A stretch of DNA of 61,572 bases, filler included, from Candidatus Nezhaarchaeota archaeon WYZ-LMO8 (GTDB lineage Archaea; Thermoproteota; Methanomethylicia; Nezhaarchaeales; WYZ-LMO8): NCBI GenBank assembly GCA_004347965.1. It is 16 parts of 16 records of this genome, joined end to end, with 100 filler letters (N's around TTAATTAATTAA, not from the genome) between each part and the next. Parts side by side here need not be neighbours in the genome. Positions count along the whole stretch, not along the records: positions 17,784 to 21,593 come from QNVF01000065.1; positions 21,694 to 25,465 come from QNVF01000066.1; positions 25,566 to 29,290 come from QNVF01000067.1; 13 more parts are not named here. One strand, 5' to 3'. Shown one piece after another: positions 21,001-27,000 of this stretch. The position numbers were made by a program. Each line of letters starts with the position of its first letter. Within the stretch, counting starts at the first letter, position 1.

Positions 21001-24000
21001 GCTCTGGACCTAAAAGGCGAGCTACTATCATGGCGCATATAGCTGATAGCAACGTTGCTAAGCCTCCACCCCAAAACAAGTGAAAGGTCCCGCTAGCAAC
21101 TTCCTCAGCAGTAAGTAATAGCCTCCTTTCCAGTGAAGCACTGTCCTGCGACATAAGCCTAAGAACTAACTGGACAAAGACTTATAACTTTTTACGAGCA
21201 TAAAAGAGACTCGTAACCCTAATACTAGGGCTTACCTCCTTGGGGCCCAACTTCATGAACGCTAGGAATGTTAATGAAGGAGCTTTCAGCAACTCAAGGG
21301 ACTTCGCAATGAATGAGGGGTCTCGAGGAGGATCATGCGAGTACGTCGTTGATGCGTCTCCAAATCTAATTACGGTGGTCATCCCAACCCTAAATGAAGC
21401 TGAGGCTATAGGGAAAGTGATAGACGAGTTGAAATCAGAAGGTTTTACAAGCATACTTGTAGTTGATGGTTACTCTAACGATGGAACCCCTCAAATAGCG
21501 ATGGAGAGAGGGGCTAAGGTGATCTTCCAGCATGGAGGGGGGAAGGCTGGAGCATTGAGGACTGCGATAGAGCACGTTAGGACCCAATACATGNNNNNNN
21601 NNNNNNNNNNNNNNNNNNNNNNNNNNNNNNNNNNNNNTTAATTAATTAANNNNNNNNNNNNNNNNNNNNNNNNNNNNNNNNNNNNNNNNNNNNAACTAAG
21701 CACGATTATGGCATCATCGAAAGGTGCGTTGACGAGTACGAGAGAAGCATTAAGTCGAAGTTCTCATCTAGGCGCCACGTATTCTTCACCTTCTTTAGCG
21801 ACAAACCCCTACTGGATGTCGACTTCGCTGTGTATAGCATTACGACACATGTAGCCAGTTCCTACGAGGTCTTAGGAAGGCTTTGCAGGCTGATAAGTAA
21901 GGAGTATGGTTACTTGGCCGAGAGACTGGGAAGAGACAAGGTAGTTTTCCCGGTGTCTGGGGTTGAAGAACTACCTGAAAAAATGAGGTTCAACGTCGCT
22001 GGATTGGACTTGGAGCTTACCCTTCACGGCATCAAGCCTTTAAACTTCTCTAGCGCTTATGAAGCGAATTGCATTAAGAGACTTTTACATAGAGCGATAA
22101 AGATAAAGTTGAAATCCAAAGGGTTCATAGTGAAGGGGCTTCAGGCATATTGGAGCAACCCCGTAGTTGAAAGCGATAAAATCGAGGTTAGGAGGGGGTT
22201 CGAGTTCAACGTCATTGTATTTAGTGATGGGGTCGTGGCGCTGGCTCTATCTCCTAAGAGCGAAGTTTCATCAAAGTTGACCCTTTGGGAGGAGAGTGGT
22301 AAGAGCTACGAAAGTCTGCTGAAGATGTCTCGAGAGCTACATGGTAGAGCAGCCAAGAGACTCTACGATGGCGCCATCATAAGGATATTGAGAGTTGAGC
22401 CGATTAGAGTGCATGAAATTGTTAGCGGAGCCAGCGTTCTAAGCATCTATGGGACTAGGGGCATCTTAAGTGGACAGATTTCAGTTGAAGAGCCAGTAGT
22501 CGTGGGGGACCTAAAGGGAGAGGAAGTCAGAGAAGCTCCTTCTATGCTAAAACTCATCTACACCTTGAAGGACCTCAAGAGAATGAAAGTTACCAGTGAA
22601 GTTGTAAAGTTCTTGCATTCGCCACCCCAATTGTGGCTAAAATCAGCTAAGGACTTCCTCAAATCTATAGGCCACATAGAGCTAGGAAGAGAGACCATAG
22701 GCTTCATTGATGAGCCGCCAGAGGTGGAGCTTCTATGAGAAAGGGAGGGTACCTTAAAAGGCCCGTGCTTAAATTTAGGGATGGTACGGCCTTAACCCCG
22801 ATTGAGGGCTTTAAGCTGAATTTTAAGCCCTATAGAGGGGCTAAGTCAATATCTTGCTACGTAATATGTAAGGGTAACGTACTACATGCCGCCAAAGAAA
22901 TGATCAACAACTTGATCTATGGAGTCAAAGGTTATGAGGGGTTAGAAGCATGGTTCGATTGTAGCCTGAACGTCCACTCAATAGTCAAGGTCGATGCCAA
23001 TGATGAGTACGTAAAGGTAGCTAATGAAGTTTCTGAAGACCATGACATCGTAGTAGCCTTCATTCCCGACGAGATGGCGGTAGAATACGAGGAAGACCCT
23101 TACATGCCCTTAAAGAGGATCTTAGCGGCTAAGGGGTTGCCCAGTCAAATGATTGAGGAGTCGACGTGTAGGCATTTAAGAGATAACAGTTACGTACTAT
23201 TTAACGTTGCTTTGAGCCTATACTCCAAGACTGGTGGCATTCCTTGGACATTGTCAGAGCCTTTGTACTTCGACTGCGTAATAGGCCTCGATTCTATGAA
23301 CAAGGGGGTTGCTGCTACAGTGGCATATGCCACGCCCTTATCATTCAACTGGTTTATTGAGAGTGGAGGGCGTGAGGCGTTGACTGAGGCAGTGATCTCG
23401 TGCTTGAAGGAGGCTAAAACGTATAAGCCGATTAGGAGGATCGCCTTTCATAAGGATGGACCGTTGCACGAGTCGGAAGTGGAGGCTTTAAAGGCTGCAC
23501 TTAATAGGGCCGAAGAAATAGGGTTAGTACATGACCCCCTATGGTGTGCGTTTGAGGTGAAATCTCGATTCACACCTAGAATATTGGGAACTTCGGCTCT
23601 GAGGTTCTACAATCCCGAAAAGGGGGTTTACGTACAATTAGATAAGTTTAAGGCGATCGTAGCAACGACAGGCTTTCCTGAGAGACCTTTAAGTCCAGCT
23701 CAAAGTCCTGTAAGACCTATAATGGTCGAAGCCGTTGACGGTTCGTGGTGGGATTTTGACTTTGAGAGGGCTTTGACGGATGTTTATTGGCTCTCAGAGC
23801 TACATTGGGCTTCGGGATTCACGTCTACGAGACTTCCAATAACCACCCTCTATGCTAAGAGGATATGCAGTTTTTGGAGAGCTGGAGTTGAGCCTTCGAA
23901 GCAGCTGTATGGTAAGCTGTGGTTCTTATGAAGTGGGTCTATGTCACATGCCTTGGCGAGACACCAGAGGCCGTGTATGGTCCACTTTGGGCACTCGTTG

Positions 24001-27000
24001 AGAGGGGTATAAAGCCGTCGAAGATCCATGTACTTTACACTGAAGGGGTCAAGTGGCTTTTGGACAAGGTCAAGAAGCAGATGGCTATAGTCGCCGAGAC
24101 GAGCGACGACGTCGTTGAAGCAACTGAAGTGGATGAGACCGACATCGAAGATAATGCTAGGACTGTGAGGGAAATTGTGGAGAGGTACAAGGCTGAAGGG
24201 TTTAAGGTATCGGTTGATGTGACCCCAGGTAGAAAGCCAATGTCAATAGCAACGTTTCAAGGAGCTATAGACGGTCAAGCGGACCTGGTAACGTACCTCC
24301 ACTTGATGATGAAGGATTTTGAGAGAAAGCCCTATCCACTGATACCAAGAAGCGTAGCGAAGCTTGTCTTGCTCAAGGGAGTGGGATCGTGGGTTTCTCC
24401 AAAGCCACCATTAGTAGAAAATCATGAGTACGTGGAGATAGACCAGATGGAGATATACCCATTCATAAACCTACTTTGTGAGGTCATCGATCGAAACACC
24501 ATAGCTATCGAGATCCCCTACTTAGATCTAAAGCTTTTAACACTAAGGCTCGAGCATCCGAATCCTAAGGTAGAGTACGTAGTTGACGAGAAGACCTTCA
24601 ACGAGAACTTGAAGAACAAGGGTCTCTTGAGCGCCGAGGCCTTCCTACCATTTGGTAATGAGAGGAAGCACATATTCCTGTTATTCAGGGATGCCCTCAT
24701 AGCTTCTGGGGTCGTGGACATTGGGCATAGAGCCTTGATCGATGAAATCAAGAGAGAGGTAGAAGAAGGTGCATTAAGAAGGGGATTTGCGGCTGTGGCC
24801 GTAGACACGAATGCTTTATACATGAGGGTCGTAACTAATTACGTGCTAAGCTTCGTGGAGGCTAGTAGGCTTAAAGTGTTGGTCTCGAACATCGTTGTAA
24901 GGGAAGCTTTAGCTCCCCACACTTTAAAAGAGATGGTTAAGGAGAAGGAGTGGGTCGAAGAGAGCGATAAGATCAAGTCTTTAGCGTTAAAGGTCGGGAC
25001 TGAAGCCCTGCAATTACCAGTTAAAGCGGAGCCTCTAAGGTCAAGGTTATCAAGATTAGCCGCTATTGAGTTAAAAGAGCTCCAAGAAAGGACCAACGTA
25101 ATGATCGTTAGCTCTGTAAGCGGTAGAGGAGACCTAGCTTTAATTGAAAGTTATAAGCAAAGCCCCGATAACCCCATATTCATAACCGGTGACGTGTCTG
25201 CTGCTAATGTAGCCGAAACTGTGAAGTTGAGGACTTACTTAATATCCTATGACGTAAGTGTAAGCAGAGAGGCTCTTAAAATCACTTACACAAACTTTCC
25301 AAGACTCATATTCAACTTAGCAACACTCTTAACGATGATCTCAATAAGGGTACCGAAGACGCGAATAGAGGTCCACGTATTAGGAGCGTGGAGGGATATG
25401 ATAACCTCATGGAGTAAACCAACGATCTTAGTTAGGGCGCCAAATCCAATACACGAAAAGGCGAGNNNNNNNNNNNNNNNNNNNNNNNNNNNNNNNNNNN
25501 NNNNNNNNNTTAATTAATTAANNNNNNNNNNNNNNNNNNNNNNNNNNNNNNNNNNNNNNNNNNNNATAGAAAGACAAAAAAGGAAATTTGGCGAAAACTA
25601 ATTTTGTTCCAATTTAATAGCTTGGAGGCTAAAAGATGAGTAAGATGCCCGACTTTGTAAGTAAGAGGATTTGGCTTGAGAAAGCTTGGGTGAAGGGCGT
25701 TCCAGCAGACGTTGAGATCCCTGAAAGACCACTACACGACGTGATAGACGAGGCTTGCCAAAAGTACCAGGATAGAACCGCTATAGTCTTTTACGGTGCA
25801 AAAATATCGTATAAGCAGTTAGGGTACCTCATTAGATGCTTTGCAACATCCCTTGCAAATATTGGAGTAAAGAAAGGCGATGTAGTTGCAATATATGCCC
25901 CCAACTGTCCTCAATTTGCAATAGCGTACTATGGAGCGATGATGGCTGGTGCGACGGTTACTGCACTATCTCCTCTCTTCGTACCTAGAGAGGTTGAATT
26001 TCAATTAAATGATAGTGATAGTAAGTACTTAGTAACTGTTGACGTTCTCTACAAAAACTTTGCAGCTGTGAGAAAGAATACTAAAATCGAGAAGGTTATA
26101 GTAGCGAGTCTCCTTGGCGAGAAGATTGAAGGGGACTTCATAGACTTCAATGCAATGCTCAAAGTTCAGCCCAACCCACCAAAAATTGAGTGGGACGTTA
26201 AGGAGGATATAGCAGTTCTACAGTATACTGGTGGAACAACAGGGCTACCCAAAGGTTGCATGCTTACACACTACAATGTGGTTTCTCAATTGTACCAGAT
26301 GATGCCCTACAACGACGTCCTCATGGAATGGATAAGATCTCATAGAGTTGTAAGGGAAGAGGGAGAGTACGTAATCCTAGATTTTGATGGCAAAGAAGTT
26401 AAAATCTTCAAAGACTACTACGAGAAGAGCTATGGTGCGAGGATAGCTTTACTTCCATGGTACCACATCTACGGGCAGACTGTCGACTTAAGCTTCGGGT
26501 TAACAGTCGGCGATGTACTCGTAGTCTTTAGCCGATTCGAACCAGATAAAATACTTGAAGCAATAGAGAAGTACAGGGTTACAACCTTTATGGGTGCTCC
26601 AGCAATCTTCGTTTACTTTGCGAATAACCCTGAACTCGTTAAGAAGTACGATCTCTCCTCCCTCGTATACGTTAACAATGGTGCAGGCCCAATAGCACCA
26701 GAAATCGTTGAGAAATGGGATGAACTGACGAGTAGTTCTGCTAGAGGGCTTCTCGTAGAAGGATATGGATTGAGTGAAGCTTCACCAGTTACTCATACAA
26801 CTTTTGGGCCACCATTCAGAAAGAGGAAGGTGGGATCAATAGGTCCACCTCTTCCGAACACTTACGCTGCAATAATCAATCCAGAAACTCTAGAATTCAT
26901 ACCAATAGGTGCGGAAGGCGAGCTCATAGTAAGTGGACCACAAGTGATGAAGGGATACTGGAAGAGACCGGAAGAAACGGAGAAAGTCTTCTTATACATT

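Follow-up and report, generated by a model that had tools for sequence, protein, structure and literature searches.

The window, the whole 61,572-nucleotide stretch of DNA analysed here from Candidatus Nezhaarchaeota archaeon WYZ-LMO8, consists of several contigs joined via N runs and 'ttaattaattaa' spacers. One of these, C63, carries two genes for the putative halves of a split prokaryotic Argonaute (pAgo), followed by a gene for a CARF-PIN protein (Table 1). For the latter gene, whose start is placed at an ATG, an in-frame GTG is also present at 23919.

Table 1. Genes and features of the split Argonaute locus, with positions counted along the window
Feature	Position	Strand	Remarks
Contig C63	21694-25465		3,772 nt, short, from a metagenome bin; 3 genes chained via ATGA overlaps
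g01271, predicted N-L1-PAZ-L2 subunit	21695-22738	+	347 aa visible; 5' end open at contig start
PAZ domain in g01271 (predicted)	22259-22576	+	full-length residues about 260-365, equal to 189-294 of the truncated protein
Purine-rich GAGGTGGAG	22721-22729	+	just before g01272 start
g01271 stop/g01272 start, ATGA overlap	22735-22738	+	4 nt
g01272, predicted MID-PIWI subunit	22735-23931	+	398 aa
D186 codon (GLD), first tetrad position	23290-23292	+	aligns with GLD of wild-type CpAgo 9jh7
E214 codon (GGRE), candidate glutamate finger	23374-23376	+	assigned via alignment, not residue-level superposition
D241 codon (FHKDG), third tetrad position	23455-23457	+	aligns with 'VIHRAG' of CbAgo 6qzk
K375 codon (YAKR), fourth tetrad position	23857-23859	+	aligns with 'YADK' of CpAgo/CbAgo
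g01272 stop/g01273 ATG, ATGA overlap	23928-23931	+	4 nt
g01273, CARF-PIN protein, CARF_m1 type	23928-25463	+	start ATG at 23928; 3' end open at contig end

The first-pass annotation had described overlaps of 4 nt between the frames of g01271 and g01272 and of g01272 and g01273, and ATGA is found at both junctions. The two-gene split is not an assembly error, because contigs of independent runs span both junctions without indels (DNA contigs of X8 and X10 for g01271/g01272; contigs of X8 and X11, plus one RNA-library contig of X15, for g01272/g01273) and because separate genes also occur in lineages that are just 35-57% identical. The identical locus is present on an independent 8.8-kb metagenome contig, L004, where the first-half gene is complete (5821-7077). 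Among the strain variants listed, to which a further 27 not broken down here are to be added, third codon positions account for 11 of 15 in g01272 and 7 of 10 in g01271, and this bias, together with the indel-free junctions, is evidence for real genes. Contigs from the RNA library may represent carried-over DNA.

Read from L004, the complete first-half protein has 418 aa, with the truncated g01271 corresponding to residues 72-418. Residues 98-418 of its AF2 model (pLDDT 86.3) match CbAgo 3-339 (Z 19.9, 300 aligned) and residues 99-417 match TtAgo 9-313 (Z 18.6, rmsd 3.5, 282 aligned), and all top Foldseek matches are long Argonautes (E about 1e-14). This bears out the proposal that g01271 folds as the N-L1-PAZ-L2 half of CbAgo/TtAgo, including a full-size PAZ domain. 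In a Foldseek-independent search, the isolated PAZ 1si2 aligns to residues 260-365 (Z 11.2, rmsd 2.9, 99 aligned), with 1t2s (Z 10.4), 3da5 (Z 9.3) and 2l5c (Z 8.8) matching the same range, and a weak profile match to the PIWIL1 PAZ was also observed (profile positions 283-348, E 0.06). Structure comparison aligns 278-310 residues of the first half with long Argonautes, whereas PAZ-less partners align over far fewer (SiAga1 167, AfAgo-N 190, SPARTA APAZ 184). The extension of about 95 aa ahead of the N domain is family-specific.

The second protein, g01272, comprises the C-terminal part of L2, MID, PIWI and an invariant C-terminal WFL. Its AF2 model (pLDDT 91.4, pTM 0.90) matches CpAgo 341-751 over residues 1-398 (Z 37.5, rmsd 2.6, 370 aligned), as well as CbAgo 338-748 (Z 36.9) and AfAgo 1-427 (Z 35.9), confirming it as a MID-PIWI protein that matches CpAgo/CbAgo 338-751. 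The models of the two halves tile CbAgo end to end (3-339, then 338-748). Sequence and predicted fold thus make it almost certain that g01271 and g01272 constitute a split long-type pAgo with PAZ, and the two halves very probably form a heterodimer. The MID pocket, Y123-K127-Q138-N157-K165, is unchanged in 10 of 10 loci and is of the canonical 5'-phosphate type.

The catalytic tetrad of pAgos has been defined as DEDX, where X is D, H or K (Ryazansky 2018). D186, D240 and a lysine had been assigned to the CbAgo tetrad positions in g01272; all three residues align, but the FHKDG aspartate is residue 241, not 240. Across 25 aligned family members, the first position is D in 18, the third is D in 15 and E in 10 (E replaces D in the L002 and L005/L088 lineages), and the fourth is H in 15, D in 4, S in 3 and K, N or G in one each, with K also found in the close relatives P0005 and P0064. 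The candidate glutamate finger E214, which would complete the D-E-D-K set suggested earlier, is placed by the AF2 model at the beginning of helix 212-228, which follows strand three of the RNase H-like sheet; glutamate at this position is conserved in the close subclade, and an x[RV]E[AG] motif is kept in the 3 closest relatives covering it. The active site of g01272 nevertheless looks the least canonical among likely active family members, because its fourth residue is K instead of H or D, a 7-residue deletion lies beside the glutamate finger and HMMER aligns E214 one residue away from the glutamate of the CpAgo 'NGEK'. D-E-D-K is kept within the g01272 subclade down to 53-74% identity; family-wide, D, D and H/D/K are retained by 14 of 25 members and at least one tetrad residue is lost in 11 of 25. 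On balance, this residue pattern slightly favours a g01272 that is still able to cut.

The homologue search returned 47 proteins, the number given previously, and the PADLOC PprPIWI matches to g01271 (model 5-285, E 7.3e-19) and g01272 (model 293-665, E 4.2e-51) were reproduced exactly. PprPIWI and PDLC02436 were ruled out as clade markers, both being generic long-pAgo and MID-PIWI profiles. Twenty-nine of the 47 word-search matches form a block at E <= 1.3e-61, all of 257-415 aa, and none of the best 26 representatives in a full-library HMMER search exceeds 415 aa; long proteins begin only at E 2e-22. The MID-PIWI family of ~400 aa makes up a single clade (30 rows, SH-aLRT 87) with zero fused members. 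Its nearest neighbours in the tree are 4 long proteins without the tetrad, followed by a clade of 43 rows made up of long pAgos with the tetrad, among them a CpAgo-like anchor, while AfAgo-like and RsAgo-like anchors fall in a distant clade. With three anchors labelled and support of 71 and 78 for the neighbours, the family is placed with moderate support on the long-A side of the Argonaute tree. It is rare and patchy, being carried by 5 genomes in a sample of 401 and by 3 in a sample of 400, and it was not found in any of the 6 other genomes that belong to the same genus. The first-pass annotation had described the two-gene Argonaute in other archaea; separate genes do recur, but of the 6 among 10 lineages in which both halves were found, the halves are adjacent in just 4 (L004, L090, L002 and L099). 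A gap of 2 kb separates them in L007/L089; in L006/L010/L001 the gap is 3.6 kb and the halves are on opposite strands, with the L001 N half interrupted and spread over two frames. The remaining 4 of the 10 lineages examined yielded no N half, and in G346 (99% complete) the MID-PIWI gene is present with the N half undetectable.

The relatives had also been described as lying among CRISPR genes, and in 10 of 10 lineages the examined stretch does contain cas or CARF genes. Cas1 and/or Cas2 is nearby in 7 of 10. Where the surroundings of the N-half gene are visible, Cas2 is divergent and about 46-73 nt away in 4 of 6 lineages, and in L007 cas1 overlaps the N-half stop. In the two lineages with separated halves, 2-3.6 kb apart, cas1/cas2/cas4 genes lie between them; the halves are therefore kept inside the adaptation cassette and not beside it. 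HerA occurs at 4 of the related loci, Cas6 at 4 and Cas4 at 3, CRISPR arrays at L001, L007, L008, L088 and L099, and type III genes at L007 and L099. The gene adjoining the MID-PIWI gene varies by lineage (Cas4, Cas6, a wHTH protein or CARF-PIN), and Cas6 is the only cas gene recognised in 10 kb upstream in L009. The source genome (93% complete) shows no Cas1 and no CRISPR array, as had been cautioned, and is without the 5.8 kb that sits upstream in L004. The composition of C63 is at the 88th-94th percentile of same-size genome pieces, which leaves its binning unproven. Defence islands can bring together genes that are not functionally coupled.

The identification of g01273 as a CARF-PIN protein is upheld by a PADLOC match to CARF_m1--CARF_PIN, likewise reproduced exactly, at E 5.4e-42 (model 3-453 of 465), and its CARF domain resembles the ring nuclease SSO2081 (E 4.5e-4). 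CARF domains are sensors of the cyclic oligoadenylates that Cas10 makes. As had been pointed out, the CARF neighbour is not conserved: CARF_m1 proteins occur in only 2 of the 8 loci clustered, with a CARF_m1 gene and a PIN gene two genes from the MID-PIWI gene in L008. The CARF-PIN protein may be an RNase that responds to cyclic oligoadenylate, belongs to a neighbouring type III system and is expressed together with the pAgo; it would then not be a dedicated Argonaute effector.

Our results support the earlier interpretation, all testable parts of which were confirmed, and are best explained, with a probability of about 0.6, by a split long-A pAgo heterodimer that cuts nucleic acid and is functionally tied to the CRISPR spacer-uptake module. 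g01271 and g01272 would be co-transcribed and translationally coupled via the ATGA overlap, giving one subunit with the ~95-aa extension, N, L1, full PAZ and most of L2, and another with the rest of L2, MID and PIWI, which would assemble into a bilobed heterodimer. The MID pocket (Y-K-Q-N-K and the C-terminal WFL) would hold the 5'-phosphate of a small guide and PAZ its 3' end, while the RNase H-like centre D186-E214-D241-K375 is predicted to cut complementary nucleic acid. The system is read as part of a CRISPR-Cas locus in a hot-spring archaeal lineage of the Thermoproteota, where the pAgo would be tied to Cas1, a second Cas1-like protein, Cas2 and Cas4, and also to the HerA-NurA end-resection pair. 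Most likely, the pAgo would share or supply small DNA fragments that are cut out of invaders and bear a 5'-phosphate. The coupling to adaptation itself, read from gene order, is tentative, with odds approaching even.

Alternatively, the same, probably active heterodimer may be a stand-alone innate defence nuclease, its proximity to cas genes reflecting defence-island clustering alone with no shared pathway. Long-A pAgos are indeed presented as stand-alone immune systems in PMC12094033, and the differing neighbours of the MID-PIWI gene, the solitary Cas6 upstream in L009, the ordinary 5'-phosphate pocket and a patchy distribution like that of mobile defence genes fit this explanation. It is nevertheless unlikely, if the strongest of the competitors, given that the linkage to adaptation genes persists across lineages just 35-46% identical despite rearranged order, with Cas2 divergent beside the N-half gene in four lineages, cas1 overlapping its stop in a fifth and the halves interleaved with cas1/cas2/cas4 in two.

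A considerably less probable explanation is that the pAgo is catalytically inactive and acts as a sensor, in the manner of split long-B (fAfAgo) or short pAgo systems; its target recognition would activate the CARF-PIN RNase and lead to abortive infection. The 4-nt overlap of CARF-PIN with the MID-PIWI stop corresponds to the effector-gene position in split long-B operons (PMC10954474), and the lysine at the fourth position, the deletion beside the glutamate finger and the nearby CARF_m1 and PIN genes of L008 point the same way. This sits poorly with the full PAZ, the D-E-D-K set kept in the subclade with K an accepted fourth residue, a clade away from long-B and short pAgos, and a downstream gene that is not conserved; moreover, CARF domains answer to the cyclic oligoadenylates of Cas10, and type III genes are found in the related loci L007 and L099. 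That the two frames represent one long pAgo gene split artificially by a frameshift in sequencing or assembly, or else a pseudogene of recent origin, is highly improbable: C63 is short and from a metagenome bin, and L001 offers a broken N half, but this explanation is contradicted by the independent contig with the identical arrangement, the contigs of three further runs with indel-free junctions, the lack of any fused relative among the 26 best representatives, the non-adjacent halves of two lineages and the third-codon bias in both frames.

A split Argonaute beside CRISPR spacer-uptake genes, as preferred here, hints that two immune systems cooperate. Split pAgos of the long-B type, inactive and with reduced or no PAZ (PMC10954474), and pAgos inside CRISPR loci such as MpAgo (PMC6299218) are already in print, which lowers the novelty; what is probably new is a split pAgo that bears PAZ, is predicted to cut and is tied to adaptation modules. 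In contrast to the known split long-B pAgos, the present one has a full PAZ and a predicted catalytic set. The break between its halves coincides, within L2, with that of the AfAgo-N/AfAgo and short-pAgo/APAZ pairs.

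The long-type Argonaute of this genome is encoded by two separate genes whose products fold like one Argonaute lobe each, PAZ domain included, and this split is well supported. The contig that carries it (positions 21694–25465) is one of the assembly contigs linked in the window via runs of N around a ttaattaattaa spacer; since the window consists of joined contigs, the ORFs flanking this interval, for a membrane protein and an acyl-CoA-synthetase-like protein, are not genomic neighbours of the Argonaute genes. An ATGA overlap occurs at the junction between the N-half gene g01271 and the MID-PIWI gene g01272 and again between g01272 and g01273, and a purine-rich GAGGTGGAG is positioned 6–14 nt 5′ of the g01272 start. 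An 8.8-kb metagenome contig (L004) with an identical locus yields the complete first protein, of 418 aa.

Coordinates of features in the window and in related loci (L numbers)
Feature	Sequence	Position	Strand	Remark
Membrane protein	window	19538–21154		538 aa, multi-pass; other contig
Contig join	window	21595–21693		N runs and ttaattaattaa
g01271, N half	window	21695–22738	+	ORF, 347 aa, open at contig start
N-half extension, part	window	21695–21766		residues 72–95 alone
g01272, MID-PIWI	window	22735–23931	+	ORF, 398 aa
g01273, CARF-PIN	window	ATG 23928 to contig end 25463	+	ORF
Contig join	window	25466–25565		N runs and ttaattaattaa
Acyl-CoA-synthetase-like	window	25636–27411		ORF, 591 aa; other contig
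N-half extension	L004	5821–6105		residues 1–95
HerA-like ATPase	L004	2081–4742
HerA-like ATPase	L001	17711–19306
HerA-like ATPase	L007	7515–9188
HerA-like ATPase	L088	4950–6569
Degenerate Cas1-like	L001	12732–13598
Degenerate Cas1-like	L007	3248–4024	-
Degenerate Cas1-like	L002	6429–7196
MID-PIWI without N half	L088 (genome G346)	9254–10471
MID-PIWI without N half	L005	2273–3418
CARF_m1 and PIN part	L008	3477–4954		two consecutive genes (152 and 341 aa)
Broken N half	L001 (genome G174)	14794–16040	-	across two frames; 646-kb contig

The two reading frames could also be the remains of a pseudogene or a product of misassembly, and we reject this explanation because the locus is identical in L004, the junctions carry no indels, none of the 26 best matches is fused and the halves are non-adjacent elsewhere. 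Among independent hot-spring runs, contigs of X8 and X10 span the first junction and those of X8 and X11 the second, with zero indels. In a strain 95–99% alike, third codon positions hold 11 of the 15 listed variants in the MID-PIWI gene and 7 of the 10 in the N-half gene (27 more exist beyond those listed). When 1.84 billion representatives were searched with HMMER, no fused form was found among the 26 best, all of which are at most 415 aa long, and the first long Argonaute appears at E 2e-22; in a word-based search, 29 of 47 matches form one block at E ≤ 1.3e-61, every one 257–415 aa in length. The N half is a separate gene in six lineages. It adjoins MID-PIWI in four of them (L004, L090, L002 and L099), lies 2 kb upstream in L007/L089, with cas1, cas2 and a cas1-like gene intervening, and in L006/L010/L001 is found on the opposite strand, 3.6 kb away. 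Instead of the single-polypeptide N-L1-PAZ-L2-MID-PIWI layout of long-A prokaryotic Argonautes (pAgos), there are thus two genes with overlapping ends, and as in split pAgos the N lobe and MID-PIWI are encoded separately within one operon, or, in two lineages, apart but linked. The first-pass annotation had described an Argonaute in two genes; this is borne out by the six lineages and the intact junctions, and its PADLOC, Pfam and PDB-sequence results were all reproduced on re-search.

In L001 the N-half gene is broken, but it is intact (416 aa) in the near-identical metagenome relatives L006 and L010; a recent pseudogene or an error in sequencing would account for the L001 copy. RNA library X15, from the strain 95–99% alike, contains contigs over parts of the three genes, one of which spans the MID-PIWI/CARF-PIN junction; such libraries can contain DNA, and these contigs need not stem from transcripts.

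The AlphaFold2 model of the N half (full 418 aa, nine-sequence alignment, pLDDT 86.3) has TtAgo, CbAgo, CpAgo and further long Argonautes as its best Foldseek matches (E ~1e-14). Residues 98–418 align with CbAgo 3–339 (Z 19.9, 300 residues) and residues 99–417 with TtAgo 9–313 (Z 18.6, rmsd 3.5, 282 residues), in agreement with the initial assignment of g01271 as an N-L1-PAZ-L2 half like that of these two proteins. In a Foldseek-independent structural search of 48,161 representative chains, isolated PAZ domains fit model residues 260–365 (Z 8.8–11.2, 92–100 aligned), namely those of human Ago1 (1si2; Z 11.2, rmsd 2.9, 99 aligned), Drosophila Ago2 (1t2s; Z 10.4), an archaeal protein (3da5; Z 9.3) and PIWIL1 (2l5c; Z 8.8). 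The model therefore contains the full-size PAZ that marks long-A pAgos. By comparison, its alignment with the PAZ-less SiAga1, AfAgo-N and SPARTA APAZ covers just 167–190 residues. Weak colinear profile matches of the N half were found to TtAgo 85–179 (E 0.017) and to the PIWIL1 PAZ (E 0.06).

In each of the nine aligned N halves the canonical N domain is preceded by an additional α/β domain (residues 1–95; strand-strand-helix-helix-strand-strand-helix), and no solved Argonaute aligns with this extension of ∼95 aa. Within the full model, the sole structural matches of residues 1–96 are 6xyb and the designed ferredoxin fold 4nez, at Z ∼6, and in that search, run with the full N-half model, no effector fold was matched to the extension. 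An atlas search with the extension gave ArgoN/ArgoL1/PAZ clusters at 0.80–0.87, which lie below the 0.9 mark and serve as a lead only.

The MID-PIWI model (pLDDT 91.4, pTM 0.90) aligns over its full length with CpAgo 341–751 (Z 37.5, rmsd 2.6, 370 residues), and also with CbAgo 338–748, TtAgo 310–685 and AfAgo 1–427. From the CbAgo alignments of the two models, the halves therefore tile one long-A Argonaute, with a break point in L2 that is the same as in AfAgo and short pAgos.

The MID-PIWI half carries a candidate D-E-D-K catalytic set. In HMMER alignments, D186 corresponds to the aspartate of GLD in wild-type CpAgo, D241 to a position written A in crystallised CbAgo (6qzk, which we take to be an active-site double mutant) and K375 to the D of YADK in CpAgo and CbAgo. 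The aspartate of FHKDG had been placed in the tetrad previously, and this alignment stands; its residue number is 241 and not 240. At the glutamate finger, P-x-V-E is conserved in the aligned family ahead of the helix after the third strand; there g01272 has a 7-residue deletion and reads GGRE. E214 lies at the start of helix 212–228 in the model, one residue off the NGEK glutamate of CpAgo in the pairwise alignment, so that the finger is assigned to within one residue. The pattern x-[RV]-E-[AG] is kept in the three closest relatives covering the site, one of them 74% identical and the other two, which share one sequence, 57%, and the fourth-position K in the relatives covering K375 (74 and 53% identical). 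A D-E-D-K set, first proposed for g01272, is thus conserved in the subclade, and g01272 possesses, as far as its sequence tells, the DEDX tetrad, in which X is D, H or K and K counts as canonical (Ryazansky 2018, in the part of PMC6299218 that defines it). Among 25 aligned family members, the first position is D in 18, the third D in 15 and E in 10, and the fourth H in 15, D in 4, S in 3 and K, N and G in one each; D, D and H/D/K are all kept in 14.

The MID pocket residues Y123, K127, Q138, N157 and K165 (Y-K-Q-N-K) are invariant in all ten loci and are the same in CbAgo and CpAgo. This conserved pocket is the canonical 5′-phosphate motif of long-A pAgos and, together with an invariant C-terminal WFL, it points to guides that are probably 5′-phosphorylated.

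Trees were built from the MID-PIWI regions of library representatives (P numbers) aligned to the family HMM, with FastTree (112 rows) and a quick IQ-TREE run (103 rows). The split family forms one clade in both (SH-aLRT 87). Four long proteins that lack the tetrad are nearest to it (support 71), followed by a 43-row clade of 700–880-aa proteins with D..D..D/E (support 78), which includes the CpAgo/CbAgo-like P0109 (E 1e-206); AfAgo-like P0073 and RsAgo-like P0134 group with short pAgos in a clade far away. The E-values of the family profile are 6e-41 for CbAgo 6qzk and 2e-29 for AfAgo. Because deep nodes are weakly supported and just three anchors are labelled, we place the family on the long-A side of the tree, which falls short of proven membership. 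The profiles PprPIWI and PDLC02436 were considered as markers of a special family and rejected, since both strongly match CpAgo-like and other long pAgos and are generic; a term search of a literature library did not find the name PprPIWI.

A close described arrangement is that of the split long-B pAgos of Archaeoglobus fulgidus and homologues, AfAgo-N plus AfAgo (fAfAgo; Manakova et al. 2024, in the passages of PMC10954474 on these proteins), where the N lobe and MID-PIWI also come from two genes, which usually lie side by side. The chain is broken at the same point, g01272 residues 1–398 aligning with AfAgo 1–427 at Z 35.9, and AfAgo-N (8pvv_C) aligns with the N half at Z 10.1 over 190 residues. 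However, fAfAgo-like systems are described there as long-B, without a catalytic tetrad, with PAZ absent or reduced and with a conserved downstream effector, whereas the split clade has a full-size PAZ and an apparent D-E-D-K, falls on the long-A side, bears the N-half extension, and has a variable downstream gene and conserved neighbours in Cas1, Cas2, Cas4 and Cas6. A second possibility is a short pAgo with an APAZ partner, as in SPARTA, SPARSA, SPARDA and SiAgo-Aga1, in which MID-PIWI likewise works with a separately encoded N-L1-L2-like protein. Such partners align with the N half at Z 8–12, but they are PAZ-less and in most cases bear an effector domain, the PIWI of these systems is inactive and their clade is a different one, whereas the window's pair has both a PAZ and the candidate tetrad.

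Among single-chain proteins, CbAgo, CpAgo and TtAgo are the best structural and sequence matches of both halves (Z 37 and Z 20) and share the YK-type MID pocket, full PAZ and DEDX layout; they are one polypeptide of 685–751 aa, whereas the split clade has two genes (418 and 398 aa), is archaeal and lies inside CRISPR loci, and its window member has K as fourth tetrad residue. MpAgo-like long-A pAgos have a MID-OH pocket, and in type III-B loci their gene is flanked by cas1 and cas2 (Kaya 2016, related in part of PMC6299218); in common with the split clade, they are Argonautes inside CRISPR-cas loci, in the company of Cas1, Cas2, Cas6 and type III genes. MpAgo is, however, bacterial, single-chain and 5′-OH-specific, whereas the split clade is archaeal and split and has the canonical pocket in place of a substituted 5′-phosphate motif; the family profile has no match to MpAgo at E ≤ 1e-3, and membership of the MpAgo clade is rejected on the grounds of pocket and profile. 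Cyanobacterial long-A pAgos that cooperate with the co-encoded Cas4-family nuclease ACE1 in DNA interference (described in part of PMC12094033) offer another parallel, namely a long-A pAgo encoded with a Cas4-family nuclease. These pAgos are bacterial and single-chain and ACE1 lies outside CRISPR loci, whereas the neighbour of the split clade is recognised by profiles of bona fide Cas4 and has Cas1 and Cas2 next to it.

The linkage of the split Argonaute to adaptation genes persists across lineages. Two loci came from a scan of genome contigs and the others from a metagenome scan, in which an estimated 2,200 or so stretches match the family's patterns, and a genome search; they represent ten lineages with at most 57% MID-PIWI identity between them where measured (L099 and L100 lie outside the identity matrix, and L005 and L088, 73% identical, were taken as a single lineage). 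Cas or CARF genes are present in the examined stretch in all ten, upholding the initial statement that relatives are always among CRISPR genes, and Cas1 and/or Cas2 in seven, a setting like that of MpAgo. In four lineages the N-half gene has Cas2 as its divergent neighbour. The gene beside MID-PIWI varies: it encodes CARF-PIN in the window, wHTH in L002, a convergent Cas4 in L001, a convergent Cas6 in L007 and L008 and, in L099, a 93-aa ORF ahead of type III-D genes. The downstream gene thus differs among lineages, and by gene identity no conserved effector of the fAfAgo kind stands at this position, though no search was aimed at the α-helical domain that the published effectors share. The family is rare and patchy: of 401 genomes sampled from the window's phylum 5 have it, as do 3 of 400 from the phylum to which genome G401 belongs, and none of the 6 other genomes of the window's genus does.

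Gene order and candidate tetrad in the loci of the split family
Locus	Tetrad	Gene order
L004 (= window's locus)	D-E-D-K	Cas4, Cas6, HerA, NurA, CARF_m5, Cas2 (divergent), N half, MID-PIWI, CARF_m1-PIN
L090 (window genome's taxonomic family)		Csx1-like CARF-HEPN, Cas2 (divergent), N half, MID-PIWI
L002 (labelled Baldrarchaeota)	D-x-E-H	Cas2 (divergent), N half, MID-PIWI, wHTH, Cas1, second Cas1
L100		MID-PIWI, 278-aa ORF, Cas1
L099		small array, N half, MID-PIWI, 93-aa ORF, type III-D effector module
L001/L006/L010	D-E-D-H (L001/L006)	Csx1, 15-repeat array, Zn-ribbon ORF, MID-PIWI, Cas4, CARF7, weak Cas1-like, Cas2, Cas1, N half, Cas2, ..., HerA
L007/L089	D-E-D-H (L007)	array, N half, Cas1 (overlaps N-half stop), Cas2, weak Cas1-like, MID-PIWI, Cas6, ..., HerA, Cmr genes
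L008	D-E-D-H	Cas2, MID-PIWI, Cas6, CARF_m1, PIN part, Cas4, array
L005/L088	D-E-E-H	HerA, CARF7, 426-aa unknown ORF, 167–169-aa ORF, MID-PIWI, arrays, Cas6; without N half
L009		Cas6, MID-PIWI

Four of the clustered loci contain a HerA-like ATPase. Next after it comes a NurA-domain protein in L004, whereas L007 and L088 have related 343–356-aa ORFs there. In three loci a second, degenerate Cas1-like gene stands beside the canonical Cas1, with its N-terminal part alone matching Cas1 profiles, and L001 has two Cas2 genes besides; the split pAgo may travel together with a specialised adaptation module of paired Cas1. No N half was detected in the L005/L088 lineage, and none turned up in genome G346 as a whole, which is 99% complete. 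In this lineage a conserved 167–169-aa ORF abuts the MID-PIWI start, and the 426-aa ORF divergently upstream of the solo MID-PIWI in L088 was ruled out as the N half (hhalign probability 0.1%).

The window's own genome (1.35 Mb, 78 contigs, 93% complete) contains the Argonaute on one contig alone and lacks the 5.8 kb present upstream in L004. Neither Cas1 nor, by k-mer scan, a CRISPR array was found in it; the control search for Cas1 was positive in 7 of 14 known genomes, so that its absence is unproven, as is that of an array. Compared with same-size pieces of the genome, the contig is at the 88th percentile for tetranucleotide distance and the 94th for GC (0.463), values that are high yet inside the genome's range and compatible with a native as well as a foreign origin. 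A near-identical locus recurs in hot-spring metagenomes of eight coded studies, and the biology of the locus is independent of whether the contig belongs to this bin.

The third gene, g01273, matches CARF_m1--CARF_PIN of PADLOC over model positions 3–453 of 465 (E 5.4e-42) and shows similarity to the ring nuclease SSO2081 in its CARF part (E 4.5e-4), which agrees with the earlier call of a CARF-PIN protein; an N-terminal CARF and a C-terminal PIN domain are predicted. The L008 homologue of the C-terminal part has a weak match to Pfam PIN_4 (E 5e-4) that falls short of the curated cut-off, and in that locus the CARF_m1 domain and PIN part are separate genes. Its operon with the pAgo would suit a dedicated pAgo effector, but CARF_m1 proteins occur in two of eight clustered loci (the window's and L008), in line with the initial caveat that this neighbour is not conserved. 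We consider a dedicated effector improbable and interpret g01273 as an ancillary RNase of a type III system.

What the split Argonaute does can be outlined from these observations. The N half and MID-PIWI, whose models tile CbAgo, would probably assemble as a heterodimer; co-variation of identity between the halves is dominated by one identical pair (L007 and L089). We infer that the heterodimer may cut targets in a guide-dependent manner and may cooperate with Cas1-Cas2-Cas4 and HerA-NurA. Guide generation by CbAgo and CRISPR adaptation have both been reported to depend on RecBCD-type end processing, of which HerA-NurA would be the archaeal counterpart. The idea of cooperation arises from gene order and from published hints of pAgo-CRISPR interaction (PMC5303251 and the MpAgo passages of PMC6299218, as far as these go). 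Taken further, the split Argonaute might be more than a neighbour and take part in archaeal CRISPR spacer uptake as an integral accessory, to which we give a probability of roughly one in five. As such an accessory, the heterodimer, HerA-NurA and Cas4 would turn invader DNA ends into small 5′-phosphorylated DNAs that double as Argonaute guides and as prespacers for Cas1/Cas1-like/Cas2, and the pAgo could steer this integrase to the DNA it recognises. The split might allow the N-PAZ half to be regulated with cas2 or cas1, apart from MID-PIWI; the N-PAZ gene and cas2 have a common divergent promoter region in four lineages, and in a fifth cas1 overlaps the N-PAZ stop. If true, this would amount to an Argonaute-driven 'priming' route for type III and I-A systems and to a physical link between innate and adaptive nucleic-acid-guided immunity.

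In the relevant passages of PMC10954474, the split Argonautes described so far are of the long-B and short types, inactive and with PAZ reduced or absent, and splitting is envisaged to have come after catalysis and the PAZ pocket were lost. The present clade keeps a full PAZ, as modelled, and its putative catalytic residues in those 14 members, which suggests that splitting needs no prior inactivation. Its persistent placement in Cas1/Cas2/Cas4 cassettes of Thermoproteota and Asgard archaea would represent a second, independent recruitment of an Argonaute to CRISPR loci, after the bacterial MpAgo group, and makes the long-suspected cooperation of Argonautes with CRISPR adaptation directly testable. 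A natural two-piece thermophilic nuclease could also be of use in engineering and in the study of lobe communication. Truncated long-A variants appear in one figure legend of the portion of PMC6299218 cited here, and no full-text occurrence of 'split long-A', 'truncated long-A' or 'heterodimeric Argonaute/pAgo' was found in the literature library searched. We found no description of a split, PAZ-bearing, tetrad-keeping and adaptation-linked clade; the supplements of Asgard Argonaute papers may list members, and a term search of two such papers, supplements apart, gave no mention of split forms or Cas1.

Five further library proteins are of MID-PIWI length and have two tetrad aspartates and a fourth D/H: P0037 (469 aa), P0034 (436 aa), P0139 (413 aa), P0090 (388 aa) and P0193 (444 aa). 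They nest within or beside other long, tetrad-bearing pAgo clades and may be further independent long-A splits, or fragments. P0037 lies on a 3.0-Mb haloarchaeal contig, under the source name 'Inactivated PIWI domain...'.
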